DNA of 64,000 bases from Chloroflexota bacterium (GTDB lineage: Bacteria > Chloroflexota > Dehalococcoidia > CAUJGQ01), in contig DAINSK010000013.1 in NCBI GenBank assembly GCA_036741355.1, positions 2,349-66,348 of the forward strand. Reading direction: 5' to 3'. Made by a program: the position numbers and the translations under genes. Positions 41,330 through 64,000 of this stretch are shown one piece after another. Positions within the stretch are counted from its first letter, which is position 1. Every line of letters starts with the position of its first letter. The notes beneath the pieces were generated by a model, which was not told the origin of the DNA, ran no database searches, and worked only from the letters and a program-made list of their open reading frames with translations.

Positions 41330-43129
41330 ATGCAGGAACATCGAACATCTTTCTTCGATGGGCTCGAAGCGGACCAACTTTCCGAAGTCCTCGACCAGCT
41401 CGAGGAGCGCCGCTTTCCGGCCGGAGCCGTCGTGCTGGCAGAGGGAGACGCTCCCCGCGAGCTGTACATCGTACGCTCCGGTTTCGCCGATATCTATCTG
41501 AGCGACCGCAGCGACGGCGAGCGCCTTATTGGCCGTGTGGGTCCGGGCGCGTCCCTGGGCGAAGTTTCGCTGTTCACGGGCCAGCCGGTATCAGCGACGG
41601 TCCGCGCGGTCGAGGACCTCGACGTCCTGGCGATCAGCGAGCGCGAATTCCACCGCATCGCCGATCGCTTTCCGCGTGTGTACCGCAACCTCGGCACGAT
41701 CCTGTCGGAGCGCCTTGTGCGCTCCGATCAGCGCTCGCGGCAGAGCCGGCCCACGCGCCTAGCCACGCTAATCGACGAGGGGGCGCCGCCGCTGGTCGGC
41801 TACGCGCTCGCCTGCAGCCTTGCGTGGCATCTGCGTGCCCCAGTTGCTCTGCTGGTCGTTACCGACGGCGAACCCCCCGAGGATCTCGCCGCGTTGGCGA
41901 GCCGCAGTGGCGACGGCGTCGTTCCCGCAGGCGATCGCCGCGCCCGTGCCTATCTCGCGATCATCCCACGGTCAGGGATCGAGCCGCACGGCGGAGTCGC
42001 GGGGCTAGTCGATCGCCTCGTCGCCCGCCACGAGCACGTCCTCGTGCAGGTGCCGGCCCGCGGATCGAACGGCGATCTGGGTGGGCGGACGGTATATCTC
42101 TCCGGTGCTGAAGGTACCGGTGACGACCAGTTCGCACGGTCAGGCACCAGGCTGCACGCCTGGAAGGCAGGCACCGGGCCGCGTCCCGAGCGTAGCGGTG
42201 TGCTCTGTGTGCCGAATCTGATTCCGGCCGACGAGAAACGGCTGCAGAACGGGTTGTTGCCGCCTGCGACTGCCGCGGGGCGAGCGCTTGGTTGGCTGGC
42301 GCGCGACCTTGCGGGGCTGAAGGTTGGACTGGCGCTGGGCGCCGGCAGCTTCAAAGGCTACGCCCACATTGGCGTGGTGGACGTGCTCCGGCGCGCCGGT
42401 ATTCCCATCGATTACATCGCCGGCACGAGCATCGGTGGGGCGGTGGCGGCGCTCTACGCGGCCGGTTACGGAACCCAGGCCTCGATCCAGATCCTGGATC
42501 GGATTGGCGCCAGCGCCTTCCGGCCGACGGTGCCGATCAGGAGCCTGATGTCAAGCAACGGACTTCGGGCGAGTGTGAGGAGCATGACTGGTGAACGCCG
42601 CATCGAAGACCTGCCGGTGCCGCTGTCCGTGGTCGCGACGGACATCGCCACGCAACGAGAGGTGGTATTTAAGCGCGGGCTGCTCTGGCCGGCACTGCTG
42701 GCCAGTGTCTCGATCCCGGGTATCTATCCCGCGCAACGGATGGGAAGATACATCCTGGTCGACGGCGGGATCTGCAACCCGGTGCCCAGCAACGTCGCCG
42801 CGGACATGGGCGCCGACGTGGTGATCGCCGTTCGGCTGATCAGCCGGCCTGTTCCGCGGGCGCCCGAGCTGGAAGCGGCACCGGCCACTGGCAAGGTGCC
42901 ATCGGTCTTGCAGGCGATCATGCGTTCGATCGAGGTCATGCAGAGCAAGATTTCGGCCGATACCGCTTCGGCGGCGACAATCGTGATCGAGCCGATGACG
43001 GCGGACGTATCATATGGGTGGGGGCTGCGCAACTTCAGTGAGGGCAAGCGTTACGTCTCCGCCGGCGAAGTTGCAGCCCGCGAGGCACTGCCACGGATTG
43101 CTTCAGCCCTGCCCTGGCTGCGCGGTTGA
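41330..43129 (+). CDS. cNMP-binding domain plus patatin-like phospholipase
   Basis: RFPAGAVVLAEGD...GEVSL in the cNMP domain; GAGSFKG, GTSIG and DGG in the patatin domain. Confidence 0.92.
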   Translation: MQEHRTSFFDGLEADQLSEVLDQLEERRFPAGAVVLAEGDAPRELYIVRSGFADIYLSDRSDGERLIGRVGPGASLGEVSLFTGQPVSATVRAVEDLDVLAISEREFHRIADRFPRVYRNLGTILSERLVRSDQRSRQSRPTRLATLIDEGAPPLVGYALACSLAWHLRAPVALLVVTDGEPPEDLAALASRSGDGVVPAGDRRARAYLAIIPRSGIEPHGGVAGLVDRLVARHEHVLVQVPARGSNGDLGGRTVYLSGAEGTGDDQFARSGTRLHAWKAGTGPRPERSGVLCVPNLIPADEKRLQNGLLPPATAAGRALGWLARDLAGLKVGLALGAGSFKGYAHIGVVDVLRRAGIPIDYIAGTSIGGAVAALYAAGYGTQASIQILDRIGASAFRPTVPIRSLMSSNGLRASVRSMTGERRIEDLPVPLSVVATDIATQREVVFKRGLLWPALLASVSIPGIYPAQRMGRYILVDGGICNPVPSNVAADMGADVVIAVRLISRPVPRAPELEAAPATGKVPSVLQAIMRSIEVMQSKISADTASAATIVIEPMTADVSYGWGLRNFSEGKRYVSAGEVAAREALPRIASALPWLRG

Positions 43130-43417
43130 TAGGTTCGTCGGCCAGAACCCATCGCGACGTTCGGTGGCGAGCAGTATAGCCGTCGCCACCGGCTCGACCG
43201 CCGTGATCGCCCGCCTCGAGCTAGCACGCCGGCCGGCGTATGGGAAGGCGAAGCGGCTGAGCCGCGTGCAATTCTCTCGTTGACAGGCTCGGGCGCAGAA
43301 CCGATGCTGAAGGCGGCGCCGCGGCGCCGGCACTCAGCGTGGCCCCGCGGTGGCTGTGTACCTTCAAGGCACACGCCGACGGCTGCACGGATCGTTGAAA
43401 GTAGCAGGTGCCCCGCC

Positions 43418-45064
43418 ATGATGCCCGGTCCGGTTCGGCCCCGTATCCGCCGGTTTCTGTCTGTAGCGCTCGTAGTCGCTGTCGGTGCCGTCGCCATTTT
43501 CTCACCCGGCGACTCACACCAGGCAGCCGAGCCGGTGGCAGCGCAGACCGCGACGACCGTGCAGGTATACGGTCGCGGGCTGATTAATCCGAAGGAGATG
43601 GCTTTCACCGCCGACGGCACACTGTACATCGCCGAGTCGGGCAAACCCGGCGATGTCACGGTGCCGCTGCCGGTCGGTTTTGGCGGCAAGGGCCCTATCG
43701 GTAGGAACGGCCGCGTATCGCGGGTGCGGCCAGGCGCAGAGCGCGAGGATTTCGTCACCGGCCTGCCCAACATCGGCCTGTACAACGGCGTCGAGATGCT
43801 CGGCGCGACCGGTATCGCGGTGCTTGATGGCCAGCTCTACGAGGTTGCTGCAGGGCACCTGACAGTTTCGCCGGCGCTGTCGCGAGTTTCATCCGATGGC
43901 AGCATGACCGCGGTGGCCGATGTTGGCGAGTTCAATAAGAACGATCCCGCCCCGAAGGAGAACGGCGACGCGGTACTGCACGGCAACCCGTTCGGCATGG
44001 CGGCACTGCAGGGCAACCTCTACATCACCGATGGAAACTACAACCGTATTATCAAAGCTACTCCTGCGGGCAAGCTATCGTTACTGACCCAGTGGATAAG
44101 CGATCTCACAACGACGGGGATTGCGGCGGGACCTGATGGCAATCTGTACGTGGCGCAGTTCGGCCAGGCGCCATACGCGCACGGCTCGGGGCGCATCGAC
44201 CGCGTCACCCCCGCCGGGCAGCTCAATGAGGGCGTGGTGACGAACCTCACCACGCCCATCGGCGTGGCGTTCGCGCCCGATGGAACGATGTACGTGCTGC
44301 AGTATGCGGCCGAATTTTCAGCCGAAAAGCTGCGATATGTCGCCTTCGGCGGCGAGGTGCAACGGGTGAAACCGGACGGTACAACACAGCCAGTCGTTAC
44401 GGGACTGGTCTTCCCGACGGCGCTGATCTTTGGTCCCGACGGCGCACTCTATGTCACGAACTACGGCAATGAGGCGAACGACGGGCAGGGGCAGGTATTG
44501 CGAATCGTGCCGGGTCAGGCGTCCGTCCAGGGCCCAGCGGTGCCCGCACCCGATGAAGGCGCACAGTACGTCAGTGCCCAACCAACACCGCGTTCGGACG
44601 CGGGTGCCGTGACGACCGCGTCTGTGACCATTGTCGAACCGTCGGACCCCCAGCAATGGGGTTATGAGCCCAGGGAAACTACGATCGACGTCGGTCAGGC
44701 GGTGATGATTACCAACAGCGGGCGCACCAGCCACACCGCCTCGGCCAGTTCCGGCGAGTTTGACACCGGACTGATCACCGGCGGCGCCTCCGCTACGATC
44801 CGCTTCGATACGCCCGGCACGTACACCTACTTCTGCCAGCCGCATCCGTGGATGAAGGGGACGATCATCGTCCGCGGTCAAGGGGGAGCCGCCGCCGCCC
44901 CGGTTCAAACGAAAGCCACTCCATCGCTATCATCACCCAGCATCAACCCGTTCTGGGCGGTCGGGTTTGTTGGAATAATAATTGGCCTGGTGTATCTTGC
45001 CGGATTTGCGATCCGCCGGCGCTCGCACGAGCCGCGACCGGAGCCACCGGGTACATCGGGTTAG
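43418..45064 (+). CDS. ScyD/ScyE-type beta-propeller fused to cupredoxin, with C-terminal TM anchor
   Basis: Signal peptide, repeated P.GIA.GPDG.LYV blades, SHT...YFCQPHPWMKG, and a C-terminal TM followed by RRR. Confidence 0.85.
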   Translation: MMPGPVRPRIRRFLSVALVVAVGAVAIFSPGDSHQAAEPVAAQTATTVQVYGRGLINPKEMAFTADGTLYIAESGKPGDVTVPLPVGFGGKGPIGRNGRVSRVRPGAEREDFVTGLPNIGLYNGVEMLGATGIAVLDGQLYEVAAGHLTVSPALSRVSSDGSMTAVADVGEFNKNDPAPKENGDAVLHGNPFGMAALQGNLYITDGNYNRIIKATPAGKLSLLTQWISDLTTTGIAAGPDGNLYVAQFGQAPYAHGSGRIDRVTPAGQLNEGVVTNLTTPIGVAFAPDGTMYVLQYAAEFSAEKLRYVAFGGEVQRVKPDGTTQPVVTGLVFPTALIFGPDGALYVTNYGNEANDGQGQVLRIVPGQASVQGPAVPAPDEGAQYVSAQPTPRSDAGAVTTASVTIVEPSDPQQWGYEPRETTIDVGQAVMITNSGRTSHTASASSGEFDTGLITGGASATIRFDTPGTYTYFCQPHPWMKGTIIVRGQGGAAAAPVQTKATPSLSSPSINPFWAVGFVGIIIGLVYLAGFAIRRRSHEPRPEPPGTSG

Positions 45065-45126
45065 GCCGCGTCTGTCTGAACATACGCTGGTGCATTGAAC
45101 AAGTGACCCGGCCAGGGAGCGCAATC

Positions 45127-46575
45127 ATGACTTCGGAGTCCGCCGCGGAAACACAGACCAATCCTGAAGTCGAAGCGTTCGTCAACAGTCTGATCGAGAA
45201 TGCCGCGCACGCTCGCCTGACTCAGCTCTTTGCAGACGGCCATAGTCGCGCGCTGTACCACGTCGCGGATCGCGACGGCGTCGGCGTGATTGCCTTGCGC
45301 ACGCCGCAACTCACGCACGACGAGTTGGTCACCCTGATGAAGTTCCGGTTGGCGCAATACGTCGCCGTGAATTTTATCGACCCAGAGATGGTCTACGAGG
45401 CACGCATGGAACACGAGCCGCTGACGGGCGTTGCAGATGGTGACGTTCATGTGATCGCTGGGTCCGTAGCGACCGGGGAGATCCTCTGTTACGCCGCAAT
45501 CAAGGCATCCCCGGAGGCACCCGCCGGCACCACCCTGCGCACCCGCGACCGCCCGCTGTTCGCCGTCGAAAAGACGCATGGCTGGGGTATCTATAACCGG
45601 CTGCGCGTGTTGCCCGACCTGCCTCTTGGCAAGCTGCGTGAGCTCGGTCGGTTCGTCAAAAACCAGCGGCTGCACGCGTTCGACGCGCTCGGCCTTCGGG
45701 CGCCGGTGGAGGTGGGTCTGGCCGTCTTCCGCGCTCTCTCCGGTCCGTTGCGCCTGGAAGTAGACGGTCTGATCGGCGACCTGGAAGAGGGAGTCGCCAA
45801 ACGCAATCTCGAGTATTTCCACGTGCCGCTGGTCGTGATCCACGGCACCGTGCCCTACGAACACGAGGAGTCCTATTTTTTTCCGCGCTACCAGTACAAG
45901 ACGGTTTATCCATTCGCCACTCTCTCGCTTGACATCACCAGCGCCATGTTGGCACGGCTCGATGCGATCGAGGCGGGACTAGCCAAGCCTGGCAAGGAGG
46001 GGCTGATGGCGTTGCTGGCGTTGAAGCGCGATGTCCTCAGCCCCGTGAGTACGGCGATGCCACCGGAAGGGCTGGCGCCGCTCACCAACGCCGATCTGCC
46101 CCAGCTCGGCGTGCCGATGCAGGCTCGACGTCAGATGCTGAACCTGGCCGAACGGCTGCGATCGATCAACCTCTTTAGCGGTCTATCTGTAGCCGAGGCG
46201 ACGGTGCTAGGCACGTTCATTGAACGCGAAGCAGTTCCGTCCGGAACGGTCATCGTGCGTGAAGGCGACGTTGGCGACGATCTCTACCTGATAGAAGCGG
46301 GCGAGGCGGAGGCGCACATCAACAGCCGTGGCGGGGTGCCGCTGATTCTGGCGACGTTCGGCCCCGGCGAGTATTTCGGCGAGATCGCGCTGCTCACCGG
46401 CTCCGAGCGCACAGCCGACGTGGTCGCAACGACGCCGATGACCTTGCTGCGGCTGACGAAGGATGCCTACACCCGCTACCTGATGCACGCGATTGAGGTC
46501 GAGCAACAGATTACGCGCACGGCGATGCATAGCAGTCAGCAGAACGCTAAGAAACGGGTCTCGATGGATACGTAA
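45127..46575 (+). CDS. FeeM/LuxI-like (GNAT-fold) acyltransferase fused to a C-terminal cNMP-binding domain
   Basis: N-domain has KFRLAQY...HVIA...LFAVE...LRELGRFV. C-domain has GEYFGEIALLTGSERTADV. The cNMP call is firm; the GNAT call is moderate. Confidence 0.65.
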   Translation: MTSESAAETQTNPEVEAFVNSLIENAAHARLTQLFADGHSRALYHVADRDGVGVIALRTPQLTHDELVTLMKFRLAQYVAVNFIDPEMVYEARMEHEPLTGVADGDVHVIAGSVATGEILCYAAIKASPEAPAGTTLRTRDRPLFAVEKTHGWGIYNRLRVLPDLPLGKLRELGRFVKNQRLHAFDALGLRAPVEVGLAVFRALSGPLRLEVDGLIGDLEEGVAKRNLEYFHVPLVVIHGTVPYEHEESYFFPRYQYKTVYPFATLSLDITSAMLARLDAIEAGLAKPGKEGLMALLALKRDVLSPVSTAMPPEGLAPLTNADLPQLGVPMQARRQMLNLAERLRSINLFSGLSVAEATVLGTFIEREAVPSGTVIVREGDVGDDLYLIEAGEAEAHINSRGGVPLILATFGPGEYFGEIALLTGSERTADVVATTPMTLLRLTKDAYTRYLMHAIEVEQQITRTAMHSSQQNAKKRVSMDT

Positions 46576-46684
46576 GCGTCCGTCGTAAATTCCCTTTGCA
46601 TCGATGCGCGCGCGCTGGACAGGGCAGACGCTGTGGCAATGACGGAGGTCAATTACGAGCGCGTTTTATGCATGGCTGGCACGT

Positions 46685-48964
46685 ATGTCCGTTCACCACA
46701 AATGGTGGCTGATCGGCGCATGGGTAGTCCTGCTCGCCGTGTCGGCGGTCGGCGCCTCCAAGCTGGAACGTGCGTTGAAAGTCGGCGGGTTTAGCCTGCC
46801 CGGCACCGAGTTCAACACGACCTCGAAAGTCCTCTCCAACGACCTCAACATATCGTCAGATAAATCTGCGGACGTGGTCTTCCATTCGAATCGGTACCTC
46901 GTTACGGACCGGGTCTTCTATGACGCTGTTGATGGAGTCGTCAAGAAGCTCCAACAGGTCCCGTATGTGACCAAAATCGACACGCTGTATAGTACTGGAA
47001 TCCCGGATTTCGTCAGCCGCGACAACCGAACCACTTATGCGTTGGTCACGCTTACGGGCAGCGAAGAGCAACTGGAGCGCGCGACACCTGATCTGCGCCG
47101 GCTAGTGCAGTCGAAAGACATCACCGTCTATCTGATCGGCCAGGCGGCGGCCAACTACGACATCCAATCCGCGAGCGTCAGCGACCTGGTGGCTGTCGAA
47201 CGGTTCACGTTTCCGGTCATCTTCCTGCTACTGGTGCTCGTTTTTGGCTCCGTAGTGGCAGCCGGCATCCCGCTCGTTCTCGGTGCTGCCGGTGTATCCG
47301 CCTCGCTGGCAGTCTTGTTCATCATCGCCCAATTCACCGACCTATCGATCTTCGCGCTCAATACGGCCTCGATGATCGGTCTGGGCTTGGCGGTCGACTT
47401 TTCGCTGATCATGGTCAGCCGCTTCCGTGAAGAGCTGGCACACGCGCCGGTGCCCGAGGCGTTGGAGCGCACACTGCAAACCGCGGGACGTTCAATCACG
47501 TTCTCGGGGGTCACGCTAATCCTGACGATGTCGGTGCTGACCCTCTTCCCCATCACCGTGATCCGCTCCATCGCGCTGGCGATCATGGTGGTCGGGGCAA
47601 TTGCCGTACTCACCGGCTTGCTGCTGCTCCCACCGCTGCTCGCTGCGCTTGGTACGCACGTGAACAGCCTCAACGTGCGCCGCCTCCTGCCGGGGCTCAA
47701 TCGTAACCGCGACGGAATGTGGCGGAGCTGGGCGCACGCAGTCATGCGCAGGCCGTGGGTCAGTATCATCGCGGCGCTGCTCGTGCTTGGGTTGTTGGCG
47801 CTTCCCGCCGGCTGGATGCGGCGCACGGGCGTGACCGTCCAGGTGCTGCCGAAGGATAGCGAGTCCCGCCTGGCGTACGAGCTGATACAACGCCAGTTTG
47901 GTCTGGGTGAGCCGGGGCCGCTGTTCGTGGTTGTTCAAGCGAACCGGCAAAACGGAATCTGGACGCCGAGCGTCCTGAAAGGGATTTACGACCTCCATAC
48001 CCACCTGGAGGCGGATCCACGGGTCGCGCATGTGCAGTCCTTGGCGAGCCTCGTCCCGAATCCGTCGTCCGACTGGATCCAGTCGCTTTCGCCGGCCACG
48101 ATCAACTCCAATACGGACCGCAAGCGGATCGCAGAGCGTCTGGTGAACTTGGCCGGTGCGAACACAACCACGACATTGATCGTCTATCCCCGCTACCGTG
48201 AGACCGACCCCAAGACCGTGGATTTAATGAAGGATCTACGGGCGCATGCGACAACGTGGGCACCGGGTTTGAAGGGCGCGCGAGTGCTTGTGGGAGGTTC
48301 TCCGGCGCAGCACTACGATTTCGACAAGGTAGTGTACGACCAGTTTCCGCTGCTTCTTGGGCTCAGCCTGGTGGTGACGTTCGCCATCCTGATGCTGTTC
48401 TTCCATTCATTAATCCTGCCGGTCAAGGCGATCTTGTTGAACCTCGCCTCGATCGTCGCCAGCTACGGTGTCCTCGTGCTGGTCTTCCAGTTCGGCGTTG
48501 GTGACTCCCTCCTCCGCTTTCACTCGATTGGAGCTGTGCTCTCGTACACGCCGGTGCTACTCTTCTCGATCCTGTTTGGCCTCAGCACCGACTATGAGGT
48601 CTTCTTGCTAACCCGTGTGCGCGAGAGCTACCTACAAGGCAGCACGAATGAGGAGGCGGTCGCGCACGGGCTGGAGCGGACCGCCGGCGTGATCACCGCG
48701 GCCGGCCTGATCATGATCGCGGTCTTCGGGTCATTCGCGCTGACTGGAGTGCTGGTAATCAAGGAGATCGGCTTCGGCCTCGCCGTCGCGGTCCTGATCG
48801 ATACGACGCTGGTCCGGATTGTGCTCGTGCCGGCCGCGATGAAGCTCATGGGCGACTGGAACTGGTGGATGCCGAAAGCGCTCGGTCGCCTTGTACCTGA
48901 AATCGAAGAGGGTGAGATTCGCCCGCCAACCAAGCCTGCCGGGGCACCGGTGGGCGGCTCATGA
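46685..48964 (+). CDS. MmpL-family RND transporter
   Basis: Two TM bundles; GLGLAVDFSL, GLSTDYEVF and DWNWWMP. Confidence 0.94.
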   Translation: MSVHHKWWLIGAWVVLLAVSAVGASKLERALKVGGFSLPGTEFNTTSKVLSNDLNISSDKSADVVFHSNRYLVTDRVFYDAVDGVVKKLQQVPYVTKIDTLYSTGIPDFVSRDNRTTYALVTLTGSEEQLERATPDLRRLVQSKDITVYLIGQAAANYDIQSASVSDLVAVERFTFPVIFLLLVLVFGSVVAAGIPLVLGAAGVSASLAVLFIIAQFTDLSIFALNTASMIGLGLAVDFSLIMVSRFREELAHAPVPEALERTLQTAGRSITFSGVTLILTMSVLTLFPITVIRSIALAIMVVGAIAVLTGLLLLPPLLAALGTHVNSLNVRRLLPGLNRNRDGMWRSWAHAVMRRPWVSIIAALLVLGLLALPAGWMRRTGVTVQVLPKDSESRLAYELIQRQFGLGEPGPLFVVVQANRQNGIWTPSVLKGIYDLHTHLEADPRVAHVQSLASLVPNPSSDWIQSLSPATINSNTDRKRIAERLVNLAGANTTTTLIVYPRYRETDPKTVDLMKDLRAHATTWAPGLKGARVLVGGSPAQHYDFDKVVYDQFPLLLGLSLVVTFAILMLFFHSLILPVKAILLNLASIVASYGVLVLVFQFGVGDSLLRFHSIGAVLSYTPVLLFSILFGLSTDYEVFLLTRVRESYLQGSTNEEAVAHGLERTAGVITAAGLIMIAVFGSFALTGVLVIKEIGFGLAVAVLIDTTLVRIVLVPAAMKLMGDWNWWMPKALGRLVPEIEEGEIRPPTKPAGAPVGGS

Positions 48965-50045: not shown

Positions 50046-50083
50046 ACTCTGCCGCAGTAGGCACGTAGAAGGGAGAATCAGAA

Positions 50084-51352: not shown

Positions 51353-51460
51353 CCACATGCGGGAATCACGGTCTCAAGGCGCTGACTGTTAGCGCTCATT
51401 CGGTTACCGTTCGTGCTCGTGTCGCTGCGCGCCGGCGCGGCTTCCAATGGGAGGCTTGTC

Positions 51461-54287: not shown

Positions 54288-54396
54288 CTCAGAATTCCTC
54301 ACTCCCGTTGTTGAGCACAATCGACCAGCAGGATACCGCGTTTCTTGCAGGCTGCGAACAATACTGCATGGGTGTCTCCCACGGTACCGCCTCTGC

Positions 54397-56095: not shown

Positions 56096-56411
56096 ACCAT
56101 CGCTGCCCGCAAGCGCCGTAGGAGCTAATTAGCCCCAAGCCGCCTGATGCCTTGCCGCACTCCGTGCTATACGGAGGCTGCCCGTCCGTAATCGGCACGA
56201 GAAGATCCAGGGGCCGCACTACGTCGATCACCGCGCTCCAACCTGCTACCATGTGCTCCGCTTGGGACTGGACATGAGCCCAGCCGGCAGAGCTGATGCG
56301 TAGGCTGGTAGCGGTGTACCAGTCGAATCAGTTCAGTTTCGCGACCGGTGCTTATGGGAGAGGCAGTTCGCCGCCGGGGCATTGTGCACGGCCAGCAGAA
56401 AGGTGCGAACC

Positions 56412-58022: not shown

Positions 58023-58312
58023 GCTTGTCACTCCGCTGCCGCGAGAAATTGACGAGGGTCTACGTGGACAACGAGCAAGGGGCGGCGAAAGGCAATCCTA
58101 GCGCCCGGGTCGGAGCGGTCCATGTCACCGCTGACGAAGCGGACGGCCAGCTCGGGGCGAGTAGCACTGGTCCCCTGGAATGGCGGCGCGGGAGCTGGCC
58201 GATGATCGCGATCGCCGTGCTCGTCATCCTAGCTATGGTCGGTCTGCTTGCCTTCATGCTATGGGGCACATTTCATCAAGTGGCCACGGCCACGCTCCCG
58301 CTCCACCACTAG
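58019..58312 (+). CDS. Small single-pass membrane protein
   Basis: GTGA overlap with the crtI-like gene; TM segment MIAIAVLVILAMVGLLAFMLW. Confidence 0.55.
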   Translation: MSLSLRCREKLTRVYVDNEQGAAKGNPSARVGAVHVTADEADGQLGASSTGPLEWRRGSWPMIAIAVLVILAMVGLLAFMLWGTFHQVATATLPLHH

Positions 58313-58353
58313 GGGGCACTGCTTCTCGCACGCGGCCCAAGGAGTTGACCGCT

Positions 58354-61098
58354 ATGGGTGATCCGTTCGCTCGCTTTGGAGGACTGATCGTACGGCTACG
58401 ATGGGCCGTGCTGATCATCTGGTTGGTGCTACTCGCGACGTTCGGCGTCCTCTTCGCGCCCAAAGCCGCCAAGGCGCTTAAGGGCGGCGGCTATAGCGAC
58501 CCTAACTCCCAATCGGCCAAGGCCGCGATGGCGCTCGATCAACAGTTCGGCGCCTCTGACGCTCGCACGGTAGCCGTTGTCTTCCGCTCGACGTCCCAAA
58601 CCGCGGAAGATCCGAGCTTTAAAGCCGCGGTGACCGGCGCCGCAGATCGCCTGGCTCACGTCGGGCACGTTCGTAGCGTTGCGAGTTTCTACAGCAGCGG
58701 CAACCCGCTGCTCCTGAGCGACGACCACCATCTCACCCTTGTCAACGTTACTCTCGATGGCGACGATTCGACGATGCAGGCCACCGTTCCCGCACTGCGG
58801 GATGCTGTGAAGGGTGTACCGCTCGAGCACTATGTCACCGGCGTGCCTGCCCTCAATAAGGACATCGAGGTGACGAGCGACCAAGATTTGCAACGCGCGG
58901 AACTGTTTACCATTCCGATCGTCGTGATCCTACTCGTGCTCGTCTTCCGCACGATTGTTGCGGCCGCCATGCCACTCGTCGTCGGTGCGGCGTCGGTCGT
59001 TGTCGCGGTAACGGTTCTCTACGGCATTGCTCTCCAAACTGACTTATCTATTTTCGCGCTGAACGTCGCTTCTATGATCGGCCTCGGCCTCGGCATCGAC
59101 TTCTCCTTGATTATGGTCACGCGCTTCAGAGAGCAGTTAGCAGCGGGACTACGTCCCGCCGATGCCGCCGTTGTCACCGTGATGACAGCGGGTCGCTCGA
59201 TCACGTACTCCGGCGTCACGGTGCTCCTCGGCATGTTCGTCCTCACCGCCCTCTTCAACTTGACGGTCGTTCGCTCCATTAGCCTGGCCGTTATGGTGGT
59301 GGCAGCGACCGCACTGCTCGCTGGCCTGACCCTGCTGCCCGCGGTGCTGGCCATAATCGGCCACCGAGTCGAGTGGCTACGGGTAATACCGCGAGCGAAG
59401 CCACCTCAACCGGGCCAAGTTGGTTTCTGGTATCGATTCAGCCATGCTGTCATGCGCCACCCCGCGGTGTGGCTGGCCGCGAGTCTGATCATCCTCGTCG
59501 TGATCGCGTCGCCGGCGCGGGAGCTCAAGCTGGTGGGCATTACCCCCAAGGGCCTACCGGGCGGCGCTGAATCGGTGAAAGGTGCGAACGCGATCAACGG
59601 CGCCTTTGGCGGCGACCGGCTGGCTCCGATGGAGGTCGTCATTCGTACAGATCAAAACGGCGTGTGGAAGCCTGAGTTCCTCAGTGCGCTGCAAGCCTTG
59701 TCGGATCGCGCGGCGGCGGACCCACGCAATCAGCAGGTCATCTCGCTCACGACTATCGCGCAGGCCGCCGGGCTACCGCCTGCGCAGATTCAGTCGCTTA
59801 CGCCTGAGCGTGTGAGGGCGACCCCAGGCGGATCGCAATTTGCGCCCCTCGTGGTCAACCTCAATGGGGACAACAGCACTGCCCTGGTCACGATCTTTTC
59901 TAAGTATGATCAGCTCGATAACAGACACGAAGATTTCGTGCTCGATCTTCGGCACAAGATCATCCCCAGCATTCGTCAGCTCGGCGTCTACAATGTGCTC
60001 GTTGGCGGCAACGTCGCCAGTTCCATCGACTTTCGCAATGCGCTGTACCAGCGTTTCCCGTACCTCGTGCTTGGGGTGATGGTCGTAACCTTCATCATGC
60101 TGATGATGTTCTTTCAATCGGTGTTCTTACCACTGAAAGCAATTTTGCTGAACCTCGTCTCTATCGTTGCGACCTATGGAGTGCTTGTAGCGTTATTTCA
60201 GTATGCCTGGGGCGAAAAGGTACTCGGCTTTACACCAGTGCATAAATTGGGTGAATTTACACCGGCAATCGTTTTTGCGATCCTCTTTGGTCTCTCCACC
60301 GACTATGAAGTCTTTATGCTTTCGCGGGTCAAGGAATACTACCACAAACTCGGTAATAACGAGGAGGCGGTTGCGGCCGGCCTCGAACAGACCGCAGGGA
60401 TGATCACGGCGGCCGGTCTGATCCTGATTGGGACCTTTGGCTCTTTCGGCGTGTCGCGCACGCTGGTGATCAAAGAGATCGGCATCGGCCTGGCGATTGG
60501 CGTGCTGATCGATTCGACGATCGTGCGCGTGATTATGGTGCCTGCGACGATGCGCTTGATGGGGCACTGGAACTGGTGGATGCCGAGCTGGCTCAAACGC
60601 ATCGTCCCCGAGATTCGCGAGGCGCCACTGCCTGCCTTCGCGGCGGCCGCGCCGGCGCCGGTGCTGGGCTCGCAGCCCTCATCCGCCGGCTCGTATGCTG
60701 CCACCGCGGCCCCGACTTTAGGGACCTGGCGGGTTCCAGCCACGGGTCTGCTGCGGCCCTTCGGCAGTTCGGTGGGCACCGACGTCATCCATCTTCCGCG
60801 CTCGCGGCCGCTTCGTATCGGCAGGAGCGAGGATAACGATCTCCAGCTCTTCGATCGTCGCATCTCGCGGCACCATGCGGAGATCTCCTACCAACAGGAA
60901 ACGTTCATTCTTTCGGACCTCGGCAGCAGTAACGGGCTGTCAATCAACGATCGCCTCATAGAAGTGCCAACCGCGTTGCAGGACGGCGATCAGGTCCAGA
61001 TCGGCAATATGCGCAGCGTGCTGTTTTCCGTGGAGATTCGCGCGAGTCGACAGGGTGCGACGGCGTCGACCGATGACCATCCGCTAAGTTCGCCGTAG
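58354..61098 (+). CDS. MmpL-family RND transporter with a C-terminal FHA domain
   Basis: MmpL motifs as in the 46685 paralog; C-terminal IGRSEDND...ISRHHA...DLGSSNG is the FHA signature. Confidence 0.92.
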   Translation: MGDPFARFGGLIVRLRWAVLIIWLVLLATFGVLFAPKAAKALKGGGYSDPNSQSAKAAMALDQQFGASDARTVAVVFRSTSQTAEDPSFKAAVTGAADRLAHVGHVRSVASFYSSGNPLLLSDDHHLTLVNVTLDGDDSTMQATVPALRDAVKGVPLEHYVTGVPALNKDIEVTSDQDLQRAELFTIPIVVILLVLVFRTIVAAAMPLVVGAASVVVAVTVLYGIALQTDLSIFALNVASMIGLGLGIDFSLIMVTRFREQLAAGLRPADAAVVTVMTAGRSITYSGVTVLLGMFVLTALFNLTVVRSISLAVMVVAATALLAGLTLLPAVLAIIGHRVEWLRVIPRAKPPQPGQVGFWYRFSHAVMRHPAVWLAASLIILVVIASPARELKLVGITPKGLPGGAESVKGANAINGAFGGDRLAPMEVVIRTDQNGVWKPEFLSALQALSDRAAADPRNQQVISLTTIAQAAGLPPAQIQSLTPERVRATPGGSQFAPLVVNLNGDNSTALVTIFSKYDQLDNRHEDFVLDLRHKIIPSIRQLGVYNVLVGGNVASSIDFRNALYQRFPYLVLGVMVVTFIMLMMFFQSVFLPLKAILLNLVSIVATYGVLVALFQYAWGEKVLGFTPVHKLGEFTPAIVFAILFGLSTDYEVFMLSRVKEYYHKLGNNEEAVAAGLEQTAGMITAAGLILIGTFGSFGVSRTLVIKEIGIGLAIGVLIDSTIVRVIMVPATMRLMGHWNWWMPSWLKRIVPEIREAPLPAFAAAAPAPVLGSQPSSAGSYAATAAPTLGTWRVPATGLLRPFGSSVGTDVIHLPRSRPLRIGRSEDNDLQLFDRRISRHHAEISYQQETFILSDLGSSNGLSINDRLIEVPTALQDGDQVQIGNMRSVLFSVEIRASRQGATASTDDHPLSSP

Positions 61099-61116
61099 CG
61101 GCAATCAGGTAAGGAC

Positions 61117-62157
61117 ATGGCTGAGGTGGTCAGCAGAGGTGGTCAGCAGATGAACGAAGCCACTCCCTTGCGGGACGCCGGCCTGGCTGACGATCATTGG
61201 AAGCGCTTCTACACGCCGGCCGAGGTCGAAGAGATCGCGTCGACCGCGAGCACTACCATGCTCGTATCGGGCAATTACCCCATTCACCTGCGACTCTTCT
61301 CGCGCTCGCCGGCGCTGCCGACCGTGATCATGGCCCACCCGATGTTGCCCTACGGGCTGCTGTTGGCACGGCTGCAGCTACCCTTTTATCGAGCCGGGTT
61401 CAACGTCGTGCAATGGGATCTGCCGGGCTGGGGGCAGAGCGGTGGTCCGCGGGCCGGCTGCCCGATCGCCGACTTTATTCGCGCCTGGCACGACGTGATC
61501 AGCTTCTGTGAGCAACGCTTCAGCGGCCTGCTGTACGGCATGGGCCTGGCCGAGGACAGCGTAACCTGCTACTACGTGGGGGCAAACAACCCGAAGCTGC
61601 GGGCGATCTCGTTGCACACGCTGCACGAGTACGGCGACCCGGATGGTGTGCACTGGCAGGGGCCGCCCTGGTTAGTGCGGCTGAAGTCTGTCGGTGTGGC
61701 GCTGGGCGTCAAGCTCCGACCCACCGCTTCGGTGCCGGCAGATAAAGCGTTGCCCTGGCGCTCGATCTTCTCCGGGCCCGACGATGGTCCGTTGCTGCAG
61801 GCGTTCCGGCTCGATCCGTTGCGCGTCCGTCGCTTCGAGTTCGTGCTGGCGGCATCGATGACCCGACGCATGCCGGCACCGGTGCCGCTGGAAGCCTGCC
61901 GGACGCCGGTTCAGGTGATCGCGTCGGAACTGAGCAGCCTCTGGCCGTACGCAATGAATGTGCGCTACTTTCAACGGCTCGGCGGACCAAAGGAGTTGGT
62001 CACGCTGGCGGGCGTGGACCAGTGGGTCTACACACTGGCCTTTTTCGAGACCTATGCGGCACATGTTATTCGCTGGTTCAAGGCCAACGGTGCGGAGGTC
62101 CACGAGCCCGCCGCCGCTGTTCCTGCGGCGGCTCACCGATCGGAAGGGGACGCCTGA
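61117..62157 (+). CDS. Alpha/beta-hydrolase-fold protein lacking the canonical nucleophile
   Basis: WDLPGWGQSGGPR is present, but the elbow reads GMGLA and no C-terminal catalytic His is apparent. Confidence 0.7.
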   Translation: MAEVVSRGGQQMNEATPLRDAGLADDHWKRFYTPAEVEEIASTASTTMLVSGNYPIHLRLFSRSPALPTVIMAHPMLPYGLLLARLQLPFYRAGFNVVQWDLPGWGQSGGPRAGCPIADFIRAWHDVISFCEQRFSGLLYGMGLAEDSVTCYYVGANNPKLRAISLHTLHEYGDPDGVHWQGPPWLVRLKSVGVALGVKLRPTASVPADKALPWRSIFSGPDDGPLLQAFRLDPLRVRRFEFVLAASMTRRMPAPVPLEACRTPVQVIASELSSLWPYAMNVRYFQRLGGPKELVTLAGVDQWVYTLAFFETYAAHVIRWFKANGAEVHEPAAAVPAAAHRSEGDA

Positions 62158-63140
62158 TGCCACTCGGCGATGCCGGCCTGGCAAACAATTATTGGCAACA
62201 GTACTACACGCCGCAGGAGGTCGAGGAGGTCCTCGCCAGTACGGTCACCACCACGATTGCGTCGGGCGAGTACCCGGTGCACGTGCGCCTCTGGCAACAG
62301 CCGGGACCGGCGCCCACGGTACTGATCGGTAGTTCCATCCTCAGCTATGGCCTGCACCTGGTACGCGTGCAGGCGCCTTTCTACCGCGCCGGCTTCAATG
62401 TGATGCAGTTCGATTTCCCGGGCCTCGGCCAGAGCGGTGGGCCGCGCGGAGGCTGCACCGTGGCAGACTTCATTCGGTGCTGGAGAGATGCATTCGGTTA
62501 CGCACATATACAGTTCGGCGAGGCGCTGTACGGCATGGGCGTGGGCGAGGATGGCGTCACGCTCTACTATGCGATGGCCAACCGTCCCAATATTCGCGCC
62601 ATGTCGGTGCACAATCTCTTTGAGTACGGTGAACGCGACGCCGTTCAGGGACAGGGACCGTACTGGCTGGTACGGCTGAAGGCGGCGGGGGCAGGCCTGG
62701 CCGCCAGACTGCGCCCGTCGGCCGCCATGGCAGGCACCAAGAGCGTGCCCTGGGAGTGGATCTTTGCCGGCCCCGGCGACGACCGCATGATCCAACTGCT
62801 GGAACGCGATCCGCTGAGCCTGCAGCGGATCGAGCTGCGGATGGTCAGCTCCATCCTCCAACGTCGGCCGCTGCCGGTGGCCTTTGAGCGCTGTTCGACG
62901 CCGGTACAGGTGATCGCCTCGGACCAAAATCGTGTCTGCCCCTATGAGCTCGTGCGCCGCAACTATCAGCGGCTGGGTGGACCCAAGGAGTTTGTGACCC
63001 TGCACGGGCGGCCACAGTGGGAACTCAACCGCGAATTCAGCGAGACCTACTGCGAGCAGGTCATTCGCTGGTTCCGCGCCAACGGGGCCGAGACTGCAGC
63101 CACGGGCGCCGGAAAGGCACCCCGGACTGGCCTGGGCTGA
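62157..63140 (+). CDS. Paralogous alpha/beta-hydrolase-fold protein lacking the canonical nucleophile
   Basis: TGATG coupling; FDFPGLGQSGGPR; the elbow reads GMGVG. Confidence 0.7.
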   Translation: MPLGDAGLANNYWQQYYTPQEVEEVLASTVTTTIASGEYPVHVRLWQQPGPAPTVLIGSSILSYGLHLVRVQAPFYRAGFNVMQFDFPGLGQSGGPRGGCTVADFIRCWRDAFGYAHIQFGEALYGMGVGEDGVTLYYAMANRPNIRAMSVHNLFEYGERDAVQGQGPYWLVRLKAAGAGLAARLRPSAAMAGTKSVPWEWIFAGPGDDRMIQLLERDPLSLQRIELRMVSSILQRRPLPVAFERCSTPVQVIASDQNRVCPYELVRRNYQRLGGPKEFVTLHGRPQWELNREFSETYCEQVIRWFRANGAETAATGAGKAPRTGLG

Positions 63141-63168
63141 GAACCGGCTGCGACGCTTGAGGTGGCAC

Positions 63169-63741
63169 ATGACTGCATCCGATCGACAGCGGGGTAGCTT
63201 TCAGCCGGCAGGCAAGCAGTCCACGCAAGCGGCCGGCCTGACGATGGTTCAGGCCTATGCGCGCTTCATGATCGCCTTCATCTTTGTTGTGGGGATACTC
63301 TGTGTCATCAGGCCGCTGACCGATGCACCGGGCACCGGCCTGTTCTTCTGGCCCCAACCAGCCAGGAGTTTTGGCCTATTCTTAATCAATTGGTTTCACT
63401 TTGTATTACATATGGTGCTTTGTGTCTGGGCAGCCCTGGCGATTCGACGCACCAGCCTCTCCCGCGTCTTTGCGCGATGGGTGTGCGGGATTTGCGCTGT
63501 CCTCGTCCTGATCGGCCTGTTCACTCCCGACGGCGTCTGGCTGATTCCCGCGCATTGGCCCCAGGACGCCCGCAACGGCCAGATCGCACTGATTTCCAAC
63601 GCGTCGTGGTACGGCTACATCCCCGCCAATCTCGGCGACGACGTGATCAATGGCCTGGTGGCGCTCTCCGGGCTCGTCTTCGGCTGCCTGGCGTTTGGGC
63701 TACGGCCCTGGGGCTACTGGCGCCGGCGGGCGATCGCCTGA
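63169..63741 (+). CDS. Multi-pass membrane protein (DUF4383-like)
   Basis: Four TM segments; FGLFLINWFHFVLH and NLGDDVIN patterns. Confidence 0.6.
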   Translation: MTASDRQRGSFQPAGKQSTQAAGLTMVQAYARFMIAFIFVVGILCVIRPLTDAPGTGLFFWPQPARSFGLFLINWFHFVLHMVLCVWAALAIRRTSLSRVFARWVCGICAVLVLIGLFTPDGVWLIPAHWPQDARNGQIALISNASWYGYIPANLGDDVINGLVALSGLVFGCLAFGLRPWGYWRRRAIA

Positions 63742-63758
63742 TCTCCGGCGCGGAGATC
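63740..63758. terminator. Hairpin between convergent genes
   Basis: GATCTCCG-GCG-CGGAGATC lies between the two stop codons; no U-tract. Confidence 0.4.
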
Positions 63759-64000
63759 CTACCGATCAGCGGGTGGCGTCACCGGTGATACCGCTGACCG
63801 GTGCCGTTGCCAGCGCATACGCATGCCGCCCTTTGGGCGCAAGGCGATCAGCGGCCGGAATCCCAACGGTTGATCGGGAACCAGGTGCAGCCGTCCTCGT
63901 TGCGCCAACGTGGCGACCAGCAGTACGAGCTCGGTCAAGGCAAGGTGTTCGCCCAGGCAGCTCCGCGGGCCGCCGGAAAACGGGAAGTACGAGAACGGTG
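63759..64000 (-). CDS. Cytochrome P450, C-terminal part (runs off window edge)
   Basis: Manual translation YFPFSGGPRSCLGEHLALTE contains the heme-Cys motif. Confidence 0.92.
   Translation of the reverse strand, partial: PFSYFPFSGGPRSCLGEHLALTELVLLVATLAQRGRLHLVPDQPLGFRPLIALRPKGGMRMRWQRHRSAVSPVTPPADR

Follow-up and report, generated by a model that had tools for sequence, protein, structure and literature searches.

A recurrent bacterial gene cluster around a predicted acyltransferase carrying a cyclic-nucleotide-binding domain

Gene content of the region

The window analysed here, a 64,000-nt stretch of a Chloroflexota contig, harbors 19–20 ORFs between 41.3 and 64.0 kb, 16 of them on the plus strand (coordinates below are plus-strand unless given as minus). 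Pfam and NCBIfam profiles recovered nearly all of the families that an earlier note, made from the sequence alone, had named for a set of ~19 mostly co-oriented genes. As that note had stated, no HTH or other transcription-factor domain was found at 41–64 kb in a domain search. Neither an ACP, an acyl-activating enzyme, a cyclase nor a Ser/Thr kinase is encoded within the window, which stops within the cluster, so an extra enzyme could sit past 64 kb.

The first gene (41330..43129) combines a cyclic-nucleotide-binding (CNB)-like domain with a patatin phospholipase in an NTE-like architecture (Pfam cNMP_binding 78.5 bits, Patatin 88.6 bits). The patatin catalytic motifs GTSIG and DGG are visible; a cassette alignment revealed the CNB domain to lack the phosphate-binding Arg. 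In-cluster orthologs occur in Gemmataceae (L004, 47% identity) and Gaiellaceae (L020 and L024, 41–43%), and patatin is present in two of 35 genome loci. A type I restriction–modification (R-M) system lies at 24.2–33.3 kb, ~8 kb upstream of this gene.

Downstream follows a fusion of a ScyD/ScyE-family beta-propeller with a type-1 copper cupredoxin (43418..45064; NF033206 177 bits vs. a cut-off of 80; Copper-bind/Cupredoxin_1). The protein is extracytoplasmic, with a signal anchor at its N terminus and a transmembrane anchor at its C terminus (residues 13–31 and 514–532), and its copper ligands, H...C-x-P-H-P-W-M, are invariant in all nine orthologs. In most Chloroflexota loci this gene is located directly 5′ of the gene we refer to as X-cNMP, or X (45127..46575). 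An MmpL-family RND transporter with ~12 transmembrane segments (46685..48964; Pfam MMPL 277 bits) has orthologs of 59–89% identity directly 3′ of X. The second MmpL-family transporter (58354..61098; MMPL 294 bits) ends in a cytoplasmic FHA domain (73 bits) that passes the Pfam threshold, bearing out the claim of an FHA domain within a transporter, and its orthologs (48–57%) contain the same fusion. Transmembrane segment counts are normal in both, and weak MmpL similarity to the HpnN and BstA models was noted in NCBIfam. Between the CrtI-like gene described below and the MmpL-FHA gene sits an ORF for a small single-pass membrane protein of at most 97 aa (58019..58312; transmembrane residues 63–81); small ORFs of 72–88 aa with a like layout are positionally conserved in four related loci (L006, L007, L009, L016).

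The 581-nt spacer between the first MmpL gene and the SRPBCC gene contains a partial CNB domain of the patatin type, of which the C-terminal half is present (49271..49405; tblastn, 49% identical to the corresponding domain of the patatin gene). Three-frame translation showed it to occupy its own frame, different from that of SRPBCC, and to lack both a plausible start and the N-terminal half. Descent from the ThiF–cNMP gene that occupies this position in L008 and L009 was ruled out by comparison. Thus, two of the three cyclic-nucleotide-binding domains reported earlier are intact, and the third is a start-less remnant or pseudogene fragment rather than part of an enzyme.

Tailoring enzymes and lipid-binding folds

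The next three genes encode an SRPBCC/START-like protein (49545..50045; weak Polyketide_cyc2 match; JGI call of 166 aa, DUF8410), a cytochrome P450 (50084..51352; Pfam p450 126 bits) and a short-chain dehydrogenase/reductase (SDR; 51413..52258; adh_short 186 bits). Orthologs of all three join the cluster on two other contigs, L044 and L045 (SRPBCC 66–67%, SDR-paired P450 59–67%, and SDR, positioned after the P450, 61–62%). Some homologs of the P450 are labelled BioI-like pimeloyl-ACP synthase by JGI. The second of the two P450s reported earlier is a convergent fragment of ~80 C-terminal codons (63759..64000, minus strand), which matches P450 in the heme loop, runs off the window, and shares 62% identity with the second P450 encoded on L044.

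A hexapeptide-repeat acyltransferase (52444..52860; Hexapep 39 bits; ORF open from 52333, JGI call of 138 aa) and the first of three SnoaL/NTF2-like proteins (53041..53592; SnoaL 104 bits), which carries a hydrophobic C-terminal tail (transmembrane residues 162–180), were found, among the loci compared, in this organism's version only. The second, tail-anchored SnoaL protein (53673..54320, minus strand; 95.5 bits) is a conserved member, with orthologs of 48–64% in most loci including that of Geodermatophilus (48%), and the third (54397..54990, minus strand; 78.6 bits) has orthologs of 50–60% in six loci (L001, L011, L013, L025, L045, L046).

An ICMT/MddA/NnrU-like membrane protein (55415..56095) matched the MddA model NF045656 (E = 2e-11) and NnrU (21.4 bits), both below cut-off. 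Judged from its sequence, with a visible RHPxx...LEERR...Y..Y...P tail, it is a probable SAM-dependent methyltransferase; orthologs of 52–63% exist in L001, L008, L038, L045 and L046. The adjacent CrtI-superfamily FAD oxidoreductase (56382..58022; Amino_oxidase 113 bits) is among the most conserved proteins of the cluster (61–73%) and belongs to a tight subfamily (165 matches at E ≤ 1e-30). It scores 186 bits against TIGR02734 (crtI_fam), under the curated cut-off of 238, and also matches carotenoid isomerase models.

Towards the window edge lie two paralogous, atypical alpha/beta-fold proteins, 52% identical to each other and both without GxSxG. The first (61117..62157; weak Hydrolase_4 match) reads GMGLAEDS where that motif is expected and has tblastn matches of ~45% in Gaiellaceae and L026; the second (62157..63140) has orthologs of 59–60% in Nitrolancea (L013, L025). 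A four-transmembrane DUF4383 protein (63157..63741; 44 bits) had no counterpart in the related loci examined and is a doubtful cluster member.

X-cNMP, a predicted acyltransferase

X consists of a 335-aa N-domain without a sequence match in Pfam, NCBIfam or PDB and a C-terminal CNB domain. In an AlphaFold2 model (pLDDT 88.6), the N-domain adopts a fold of the GNAT/AHL-synthase type, and the best Foldseek matches were the AHL synthases TofI (E = 1.5e-5), LasI, MesI and BjaI, with Rv0998 also among the matches. As generic N-acetyltransferases and other GNATs scored nearly as high, the acyl-donor and acceptor classes of X are guesses. At the sequence level, no link to LuxI, FeeM or any GNAT family was found, and hhalign against six AHL synthases returned a probability of 0.04%; the earlier designation of this enzyme as 'FeeM-like' therefore holds for the fold and not for family membership. 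A family-wide E-x-x-R-[FLV] motif, which parallels the E-x-S-R-F of LuxI, is located on the strand preceding the long helix. In the CNB domain, the phosphate-binding cassette is canonical (G418 and E419 invariant, R428 in 57 of 60 aligned sequences), the sole such case among the three domains of this region. Homologs number at least 353, and grouping the family at 50% identity gives 394 clusters. X is the signature enzyme of the cluster and, from its modelled fold, is predicted to represent a new acyltransferase family with a cyclic-nucleotide sensor.

Conservation of the cluster and partners of X

A shared set of genes, namely ScyE-cupredoxin, X-cNMP, MmpL, SnoaL, the CrtI-like oxidoreductase, MmpL-FHA, an alpha/beta hydrolase and cNMP-patatin, recurs together in Chloroflexota, Gaiellaceae and one Gemmataceae metagenome-assembled genome. 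The recurring order is ScyE-cupredoxin, X-cNMP, MmpL; in Gaiellaceae, gene order is shuffled. Across phyla, the conserved lipid-enzyme neighborhood spans 8–12 genes. Searching the other way round, from the tight CrtI-like subfamily, eight contigs matched X contigs exactly in length. Given synteny in many other loci, the grouping exceeds chance: the cluster is real and present in several bacterial phyla. NCBIfam, PADLOC and the literature yielded no match to a characterised biosynthetic gene cluster, defence system or catabolic locus, so the cluster is, as the earlier note had proposed, apparently undescribed.

Every version contains X, and no other gene is shared by all, which makes X the best candidate for the core enzyme, a role that had been suggested for it; PKS, NRPS and terpene cyclase genes, reported missing here, are likewise absent from all ~50 related loci. 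Elsewhere, X is fused to FAD_binding_4, an LCM carboxyl methyltransferase or ThiF, is followed by KAS III in one setting and by acyl-CoA dehydrogenase and MMPL in another, and adjoins an AMP-forming ligase in L019. A stand-alone X domain without the cNMP part occurs in the cultured Geodermatophilus marinus (E = 3e-37), together with acyl-CoA dehydrogenase, ThiF, MmpL, SnoaL and a CrtI-like protein (61%). The distribution of the cluster is patchy and accessory, and roughly half the genome loci, largely from other phyla, contain X without MmpL, ScyE or CrtI-like genes.

Signalling domains (cNMP, FHA, GAF, ABC-cNMP) occur on many components across loci, and two class III cyclases lie within the cluster on one of the two related contigs that carry P450, SDR and SRPBCC. 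The Geodermatophilus version has no regulatory domains and instead encodes a sigma-70 region-2 (sigma factor-like) gene; such domains are lineage-specific add-ons.

Interpretation

Our preferred reading, to which we give about an even chance, is that the region is a version of a widespread cluster for making, tailoring and exporting a fatty-acyl-derived lipid. The company that X keeps (MMPL, KAS III, acyl-CoA dehydrogenase, AMP-ligase) points to a hydrophobic, exported acyl product. Two unrelated carboxyl-methyltransferase families (LCM, fused; ICMT-like, adjacent) and adenylating enzymes (ThiF, GH3, AMP-binding) accompany X and argue for a product bearing a carboxylate. The likeliest product is an N-acyl amide, or a compound of the aminolipid type, whose carboxylate is free. 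Overall, the earlier observations were confirmed in part and their interpretation partly supported: of the proposed lipid or terpenoid pathway a hydrophobic acyl product is supported, and nothing specific speaks for a terpenoid.

Unlikely, in our estimate, is envelope-lipid remodelling with no dedicated metabolite, triggered by a second messenger or phosphorylation. The NTE-like patatin would deacylate phospholipids, X would re-acylate lysolipids or aminolipid head groups in an OlsB-like manner, the MmpLs would redistribute membrane lipids, and the oxidoreductases would adjust acyl-chain saturation. Intact patatin motifs, two MmpLs and the lipid-binding folds of tail-anchored SnoaL and SRPBCC would fit such a role, as would the acyl-CoA dehydrogenase and KAS III partners, the many signalling domains, and cyclases in related loci. 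However, patatin belongs to a minority of loci, the extracytoplasmic ScyE-cupredoxin, ThiF/GH3 and the carboxyl methyltransferases and FAD oxidases found in fusions resemble small-molecule tailoring, and the patchy distribution is that of specialised-metabolite clusters.

Improbable, too, is the tailoring and export of a carotenoid or terpenoid, in which a polyene synthesised by genes elsewhere in this genome would be modified by the CrtI-like enzyme and an NnrU/Z-ISO-like protein, bound by SnoaL and SRPBCC proteins, acylated by X and exported by an HpnN-like MmpL. The high conservation of the CrtI-like protein and its crtI_fam and isomerase matches suggest such chemistry, together with the weak NnrU, HpnN and BstA similarities, but the crtI_fam score is sub-threshold and the membrane protein is closer to the MddA/ICMT methyltransferase model than to NnrU. 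Moreover, no phytoene or squalene synthase, prenyltransferase or terpene cyclase was found in the window or in related loci with listed neighbors, and the remaining partners of X are fatty-acyl enzymes.

Lower still we rate the probability that X is a cNMP-regulated protein acyl- or acetyltransferase of the Pat/Rv0998 kind acting on neighboring enzymes or transporters, the locus then being a regulatory neighborhood instead of an X-centred pathway. A GNAT fold and a CNB domain on one polypeptide, and Rv0998 among the structural matches, are consistent with this, as is the ligase adjoining X in L019; AMP-forming ligases are a classic Pat substrate class. Yet the GNAT-like part is 335 aa long without an Acetyltransf Pfam match, the domain order is reversed, the NCBIfam Pat model covers the CNB part only (42.8 bits vs. 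a cut-off of 460), and a metabolic role is suggested by forms of X that stand alone or are fused to ThiF, an FAD oxidase or a methyltransferase. An anti-phage system with cyclic-nucleotide-activated, Pycsar/CBASS-like effectors is very improbable: PADLOC matches to Pycsar TIR and phospholipase effectors, which with the R-M system speak for it, are domain-level hits via CNB and patatin with no model for the X N-domain, ScyE, MmpL, SnoaL or alpha/beta-fold proteins, the patatin CNB domain lacks its phosphate-binding Arg, and the cross-phylum lipid-enzyme neighborhood is unlike known defence systems.

Under the fatty-acyl lipid reading, X would be the committed enzyme, taking an acyl chain from a thioester donor and passing it to an amine; acyl chains may be supplied or bound by the NTE-like patatin together with the pair of serine-less alpha/beta-fold proteins. 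Tailoring would take place in the cytoplasm in association with the membrane, where the CrtI-like enzyme may desaturate or oxidise the product; further candidates are the tail-anchored SnoaL/NTF2 proteins, the ICMT-like putative carboxyl methyltransferase and, in this genome, the P450, SDR, SRPBCC and hexapeptide acyltransferase. The two MmpLs may carry the product, or product and precursor, over the membrane, with phospho-threonine signals tuning one of them via the FHA tail, and the anchored ScyE-propeller/blue-copper protein might oxidise or process the product outside. Synthesis and export are probably triggered by a second-messenger signal. Of the control by cAMP/cGMP and Ser/Thr phosphorylation proposed earlier, the window itself provides no cyclase or kinase; the related contig with two cyclases and the canonical cassette of X agree with a cyclic-nucleotide input. 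The activity of X would then depend on cAMP or cGMP via its C-terminal domain, by analogy with cAMP-gated GNATs like Rv0998.

Gene content of the cluster

Open reading frames (ORFs) between 41.3 and 64.0 kb of the window (G+C ~63%) were chosen by length and third-position GC and then scanned against Pfam and NCBIfam, which reproduced nearly all of the gene list read earlier from the sequence alone. On the forward strand, these scans (Pfam/NCBIfam) place first a cNMP-binding (CNB) domain fused to a patatin (41330–43129), followed by a ScyD/ScyE-family propeller joined to a cupredoxin domain (43418–45064), the signature protein X, in which a 335-aa domain lacking a family match precedes a CNB domain (45127–46575), an MmpL transporter (46685–48964), an SRPBCC protein (49545–50045), a P450 (50084–51352), an SDR (51413–52258) and a hexapeptide acyltransferase (52444–52860). 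Three SnoaL genes come next, the first on the forward strand (53041–53592), the second and third on the reverse strand (53673–54320 and 54397–54990). The forward strand then carries an ICMT/MddA-like membrane protein (55415–56095), a CrtI-like FAD oxidoreductase (56382–58022), a small transmembrane (TM) ORF (58019–58312), an MmpL with an FHA domain (58354–61098), two paralogous, serine-less alpha/beta-fold proteins (61117–62157 and 62157–63140) and a DUF4383 protein (63157–63741). The assigned starts of the SRPBCC, hexapeptide and SnoaL 2 genes are backed by a sequence-identical JGI metagenome contig (L047). Between 54000 and 56000 the G+C content drops locally to 58.5%, and SnoaL 3 has a low third-position GC (0.64); the divergent spacer at 54990–55415 (425 nt) holds a sole ORF (55036–55509) that looks non-coding.

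Of the two P450s claimed previously, the first is a complete forward-strand gene, and the second is an edge fragment only, comprising the last ~80 codons of a convergent gene on the reverse strand (63759–64000). This fragment shares 62% identity with the second P450 on L044, a contig carrying a related cluster, so the cluster probably extends past 64 kb and is cut short by the window. A 50-mer from the window end had no exact match in JGI metagenomes.

HTH domains are absent at 41.3–64.0 kb, which bears out the claim that the cluster holds no transcription factor. The scanned ORFs of the whole 64 kb include neither a nucleotide cyclase nor a Ser/Thr kinase; Rfam RNA elements or riboswitches had no match within the window, and a promoter and terminator scan of the window was no richer than that of shuffled sequence.

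The earlier note also counted a third cNMP domain built into an enzyme or transporter. A tblastn search of the window with the cluster's own domains resolved this to the C-terminal half of a CNB domain (49271–49405; 49% identity to the patatin CNB) in the 581-nt spacer between the MmpL and SRPBCC genes. It lies in its own frame, which ends at 49544, lacks a start codon and an N-terminal half, and does not show the features of the phosphate-binding cassette (PBC). As a startless half domain in a separate frame, it is not a sensor within an enzyme, and it points to an earlier rearrangement or insertion at the border of the SRPBCC–P450–SDR block. A relic of the ThiF–cNMP gene found at that position in loci L008 and L009 was considered and rejected, the remnant being closest to the patatin-type CNB instead.

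Elsewhere, the window carries a type I restriction-modification system (24261–33290; HsdM 24261–25781, HsdS 28732–30264 and HsdR with an EcoEI C-terminal domain 30261–33290, all on the reverse strand) and an NHEJ module (20555–24201) of Ku (20555–21484), an ATP-dependent ligase (21504–22517) and a LigD phosphoesterase plus primase-polymerase (22519–24201, reverse strand). Six luciferase-like monooxygenases, an FMN-dependent dehydrogenase and a Ddn-like F420H2-dependent quinone reductase occur within 3003–14572 and 40450–40974. The Ddn-like gene sits just upstream of the cluster, and another lies beside the related cluster on L044; the organism looks F420-rich.

X is a sequence-orphan family with a predicted acyltransferase fold

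Residues 1–335 of X matched nothing in Pfam, NCBIfam or the PDB sequences in single-sequence, profile or member-wise searches (E ≤ 10), and 26 members tried against Pfam at that threshold gave zero matches for the N-domain. More than 353 homologs at 40–82% identity were retrieved, nearly all from MAGs or metagenomes, and among 1.84 billion representative proteins a profile search returned only 394 X clusters (about 400 at 50% identity). Some family members are stand-alone (about 300–340 aa), others have one or two CNB domains or form longer fusions. In the CNB domain of X (PF00027) the PBC is canonical (G-E...R-[TS]-A), with G418 and E419 present in 60/60 sequences and R428 in 57/60. The NCBIfam Pat model NF058543 scored 42.8 bits on X (cut-off 460) and aligned to the CNB region only.

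A full-length model of X gave only CNB matches in Foldseek, and the N-domain was therefore modelled separately. The AlphaFold model (pLDDT 88.6, pTM 0.87) predicts a GNAT-type fold, whose best Foldseek matches in the PDB were the AHL synthases TofI (3p2h, E = 1.5e-5) and LasI (1ro5, 1.4e-4), along with MesI and BjaI, at target TM scores of 0.51–0.64 (TofI 0.62–0.64); generic GNAT N-acetyltransferases and Rv0998 ranked close behind. The E172-x-x-R175-[FLV] motif, on a strand before a long helix, is among the deepest-conserved residues of the family and may occupy the topological place of the LuxI E-x-S-R-F motif, with the strand equivalence drawn from secondary-structure order only and the Ser position varying (G/K/E/R/A).

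At the sequence level, TraI of pTiC58 was combined with LasI, EsaI, TofI, MesI and BjaI, taken from TraI's PDB alignments, and hhalign of this six-member AHL synthase alignment against that of X returned a probability of 0.04%. Together with the missing Pfam match, this argues against X as a LuxI-family member by sequence, and membership of the FeeM family by sequence was likewise rejected, given no Pfam or NCBIfam match for the N-domain. The earlier label "FeeM-like" thus holds only in the sense of an acyltransferase of GNAT/AHL-synthase fold, and fails as a family assignment. In full-text literature searches, neither this cluster nor an AHL-synthase-fold enzyme with a fused CNB domain turned up; a candidate paper, Lipocone, proved irrelevant.

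Conservation of the cluster across genomes

A scan for X in one genome per GTDB species yielded 37 loci, in Chloroflexota (Thermomicrobiales, Chloroflexia, Nitrolancea, Dehalococcoidia) and Actinomycetota (Gaiellaceae, Thermoleophilaceae and others), but also in Acidobacteriota, Gemmatimonadota, several proteobacterial classes, Binatia and a Spirochaetales bin. Neighbour listings and tblastn of all window proteins against the X loci revealed shared gene sets in Chloroflexota, Gaiellaceae and Gemmataceae, so that the genes are indeed co-conserved elsewhere. The run ScyE-cupredoxin, X, MmpL recurs in Chloroflexota loci and a Gemmataceae MAG, alongside SnoaL, CrtI-like (64–73% identity), MmpL-FHA and atypical alpha/beta genes; the cNMP-patatin and the ICMT-like protein join only in some loci. 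Two Gaiellaceae genomes hold the same set in shuffled order, which argues for a functional linkage rather than a merely inherited one. Only the hexapeptide acyltransferase, SnoaL 1 and the DUF4383 protein lacked a counterpart in other loci.

The SRPBCC–P450–SDR block was missing from the scanned X loci. On two further contigs, reached via P450 homologs, it shares a cluster with X (P450 59–67%, SDR 61–62% and SRPBCC 66–67% identity), and the block is therefore no accident of this genome. On one of these contigs (49 kb) lie, in addition, genes for two class III nucleotide cyclases (a CHASE2 sensor is present in one) and for a Ddn-like F420 reductase. The class III cyclases in or beside related clusters map to L044 8484–9968 and 15611–17800 and, in the Gemmataceae MAG, at L004 81–1907; the Gemmataceae MacB-type ABC exporter has a CNB domain on its ATPase.

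A search with the CrtI-like protein recovered a tight subfamily (165 matches at E ≤ 1e-30), and in a reciprocal check eight CrtI-like contigs of at least 10 kb equalled exactly in size contigs bearing X homologs. As noted for the window, no PKS, NRPS or terpene-synthase core was present, here in any locus examined. A 1026-aa unannotated protein on L044 was considered as a hidden core enzyme and discarded, being secreted, Pro/Thr-rich and lacking a window counterpart.

Partners of X in other lineages

Fusions of X in other genomes involve a FAD_binding_4 oxidase (loci L021 and L022 and protein P0122), an LCM-family carboxyl methyltransferase (P0180) and a ThiF-type adenylating enzyme (P0269). 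Elsewhere X is followed by a FabH-like KAS III, or by an acyl-CoA dehydrogenase and then an MMPL transporter, or adjoins an AMP-forming ligase or class I methyltransferases. Recurrent neighbours in Chloroflexota are ThiF-cNMP, GAF and S8-peptidase genes as well as MacB-type ABC systems that carry CNB or GAF domains; one Gaiellaceae locus has, in addition, a stand-alone CNB protein and a GH3-type amido synthetase. The ThiF/E1-like enzymes near X are CNB-fused, X-fused or alone; instances are L008 13924–15291, L009 13854–15242, L004 17766–18728, P0269 and L053 5679–6569. Together with the recurrent pair of GAF and S8-peptidase genes, they hint at a peptide- or carboxylate-activation step without a counterpart in the window version.

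The cultured actinomycete Geodermatophilus marinus (GCA_003428645.1) carries, at locus L053 (QVQH01000003.1, 40566–62206), genes in the order acyl-CoA dehydrogenase, stand-alone X (family-profile E = 3e-37), ThiF, MmpL, a sigma factor-like gene (sigma-70 region 2), CrtI-like (61% identity) and SnoaL (48%), in a version without cNMP or FHA domains. A CrtI-like ortholog is also encoded in Miniimonas arenae and another Geodermatophilus. From the partners of X in G. marinus and the other lineages, we take the invariant core, as read from gene content, to be X, MmpL, CrtI-like and SnoaL, often plus ThiF and acyl-CoA dehydrogenase, with CNB and FHA as regulatory additions of particular lineages.

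Features of the other cluster proteins

The propeller of the ScyE-cupredoxin protein passes the NF033206 cut-off (177.3 vs. 80 bits), as does its cupredoxin domain that of Copper-bind (36 vs. 21 bits). The type-1 copper site, H...C-x-P-H-P-W-M, with its His, Cys, His, Met set, is invariant in 9/9 orthologs, and the protein has a signal anchor and a C-terminal TM helix; it is predicted to be an extracytoplasmic redox protein. SnoaL 1 and SnoaL 2 end in hydrophobic tails. The patatin keeps the GTSIG and DGG motifs of a Ser-Asp dyad, and the CNB of the cluster-type patatins (window, Gemmataceae, Gaiellaceae) reads GQP[VA]SA, without the phosphate-binding Arg, whereas a proteobacterial relative keeps it.

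Both MmpL proteins match MMPL (PF03176; 277 and 294 bits, in two stretches each) and have 11–12 hydrophobic segments; the FHA domain on the second (PF00498, 73 vs. 20.7 bits) has IGRS, SRHH and SSNG in the translation, which supply the GR, SxxH and NG residues typical of FHA domains. The small TM ORF (70–97 aa, a single C-terminal TM helix, a weak RVG.V motif) lies between CrtI-like and MmpL-FHA in five loci (window 58019–58312, L006 3478–3696, L007 9495–9749, L009 17932–18198 and L016 3264–3485), has no Pfam match and is unlike MmpS. The tandem alpha/beta paralogs (61117–63140) and their Nitrolancea orthologs (L013/L025) have G-[MV]-G-[LV]-[AG]-E-D-[SG] in place of the GxSxG elbow, and may use an Asp/Glu nucleophile or be non-catalytic lipid binders.

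The CrtI-like protein did not pass TIGR02734 (186.4 vs. 238.1 bits) and stayed far under the cut-offs of the CrtD, CrtO, CrtISO and HpnE equivalog models; by these scores it is a member of the superfamily only. Nor did the ICMT-like protein pass MddA NF045656 (43.6 vs. 270 bits) or NnrU (21.4 vs. 24.7 bits); its visible RHP...EE...Y..Y...P tail we take to be the ICMT/MddA methyltransferase motif.

A putative pathway for an acyl-amide lipid

The best-supported reading is a pathway for a fatty-acyl-derived amide lipid, probably bearing a carboxylate. X would make the acyl–amine bond and be turned on by cNMP binding; the CrtI-like, SnoaL and ICMT-like methyltransferase proteins, here also P450, SDR and SRPBCC, would tailor the product at the membrane; the MmpLs would export it, one of them under phospho-threonine control; and the ScyE-blue-copper protein would act on it outside the membrane. 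The carboxylate is inferred from the independent association of X with carboxyl methyltransferases of two unrelated families, LCM and ICMT-like, and likewise with carboxylate-adenylating enzymes of three types (ThiF, GH3 and AMP-binding).

The foremost rival is membrane-lipid remodelling. X might also, with low probability, be a Pat-like protein acyltransferase: Rv0998/MSMEG_5458 (Pat), itself among the Foldseek matches, likewise combines a CNB and a GNAT-fold catalytic domain in one polypeptide and sets a precedent for cAMP allosteric gating of an acyltransferase, but its domain order is reversed, its catalytic sequence unrelated and its genomic context different. Carotenoid or terpenoid tailoring, which the CrtI-like gene would call to mind, is weakened, as that protein falls under the curated family cut-off and no isoprenoid-backbone enzyme occurs in any locus with neighbours listed. 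Anti-phage defence is weakened too, PADLOC having matched only at the level of the CNB and patatin domains.

We consider it improbable, if worth stating, that X founds a class of second-messenger-gated signal synthases, in which a cAMP/cGMP-activated enzyme of AHL-synthase fold would produce a diffusible acyl-amide or AHL-like signal, exported by MmpL and matured oxidatively outside by the ScyE-blue-copper protein, in Chloroflexota, Actinomycetota, Planctomycetota and other soil phyla. Intercellular signalling would then be wired directly to intracellular cNMP and Ser/Thr phosphorylation, without a transcription factor.

If the acyl-amide pathway is borne out, X would be a new acyltransferase family without a Pfam model, known almost only from uncultured soil bacteria, and the cluster a type without a PKS, NRPS or terpene-synthase core in the loci examined, which core-based genome mining would probably miss. 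It would also clearly exemplify a pathway controlled through sensor domains within enzymes and transporters rather than by transcription factors (CNB on the synthase and FHA on the exporter; ThiF-cNMP, ABC-cNMP/GAF and cyclases in relatives), and would widen the range of MmpL-type lipid export and of ScyE-type periplasmic chemistry to take in Chloroflexota and further groups. The cNMP-less cluster of the cultured G. marinus makes the question experimentally tractable.

Comparison with known systems

The LuxI-type AHL synthases (Pfam Autoind_synth; LasI, TofI, EsaI, BjaI, MesI), the best structural matches to the X N-domain, have the GNAT-like fold and perhaps the E-x-x-R-F-type motif on the strand before a long helix in common with X, and it is by analogy that X is likened to them in acyl transfer onto an amine. 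X differs in lacking a profile relationship, in being about 130 residues larger, in not keeping the Ser of E-x-S-R-F, and in having a fused CNB domain and no LuxR partner; LuxI-type enzymes are mainly proteobacterial, whereas X occurs in Chloroflexota, Actinomycetota and other phyla.

FeeM/N-acyl amino acid synthases and OlsB (Acetyltransf_5) join an acyl thioester to an amino acid, and their N-acyl amino acid product keeps a free carboxylate; the same would be expected of X. Such a carboxylate would agree with the presence of carboxyl methyltransferases and adenylating enzymes around X, and the KAS III, acyl-CoA dehydrogenase, AMP-ligase and carboxyl methyltransferase partners speak indirectly for N-acylation of an amino acid. 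Unlike these enzymes, X has no Pfam match (E ≤ 10, 26 members) and no adjacent ACP, and FeeM is outside the top 50 Foldseek matches.

The cluster patatin shares its architecture and intact dyad motifs with NTE-like cNMP-patatin phospholipases and RssA, but the cluster-type CNB lacks the PBC Arg and the RssA equivalog score is far under the cut-off. Compared with scytonemin ScyD/ScyE, the propeller passes the family cut-off and is predicted to be extracytoplasmic, as ScyE is thought to be; the cluster protein differs in its fusion to a type-1 copper cupredoxin and its anchoring at both ends, and is accompanied by no other scy genes.

The mycobacterial mbtK-N module combines an N-acyltransferase, an acyl-(CoA/ACP) dehydrogenase and an acyl-AMP ligase with export by MmpL4/5. 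Compared with those lipid-export loci, the cluster appears to follow the same logic, with a different acyltransferase family, no siderophore NRPS/PKS, no MmpS and an FHA domain on one MmpL; the cluster MmpLs fall far under the cut-off of the MmpL3 equivalog model. The families of the parts and the logic of acyltransferase, tailoring and MmpL export are already known, and what appears to be new is the X acyltransferase family, its conserved partnership and the density of built-in sensor domains.
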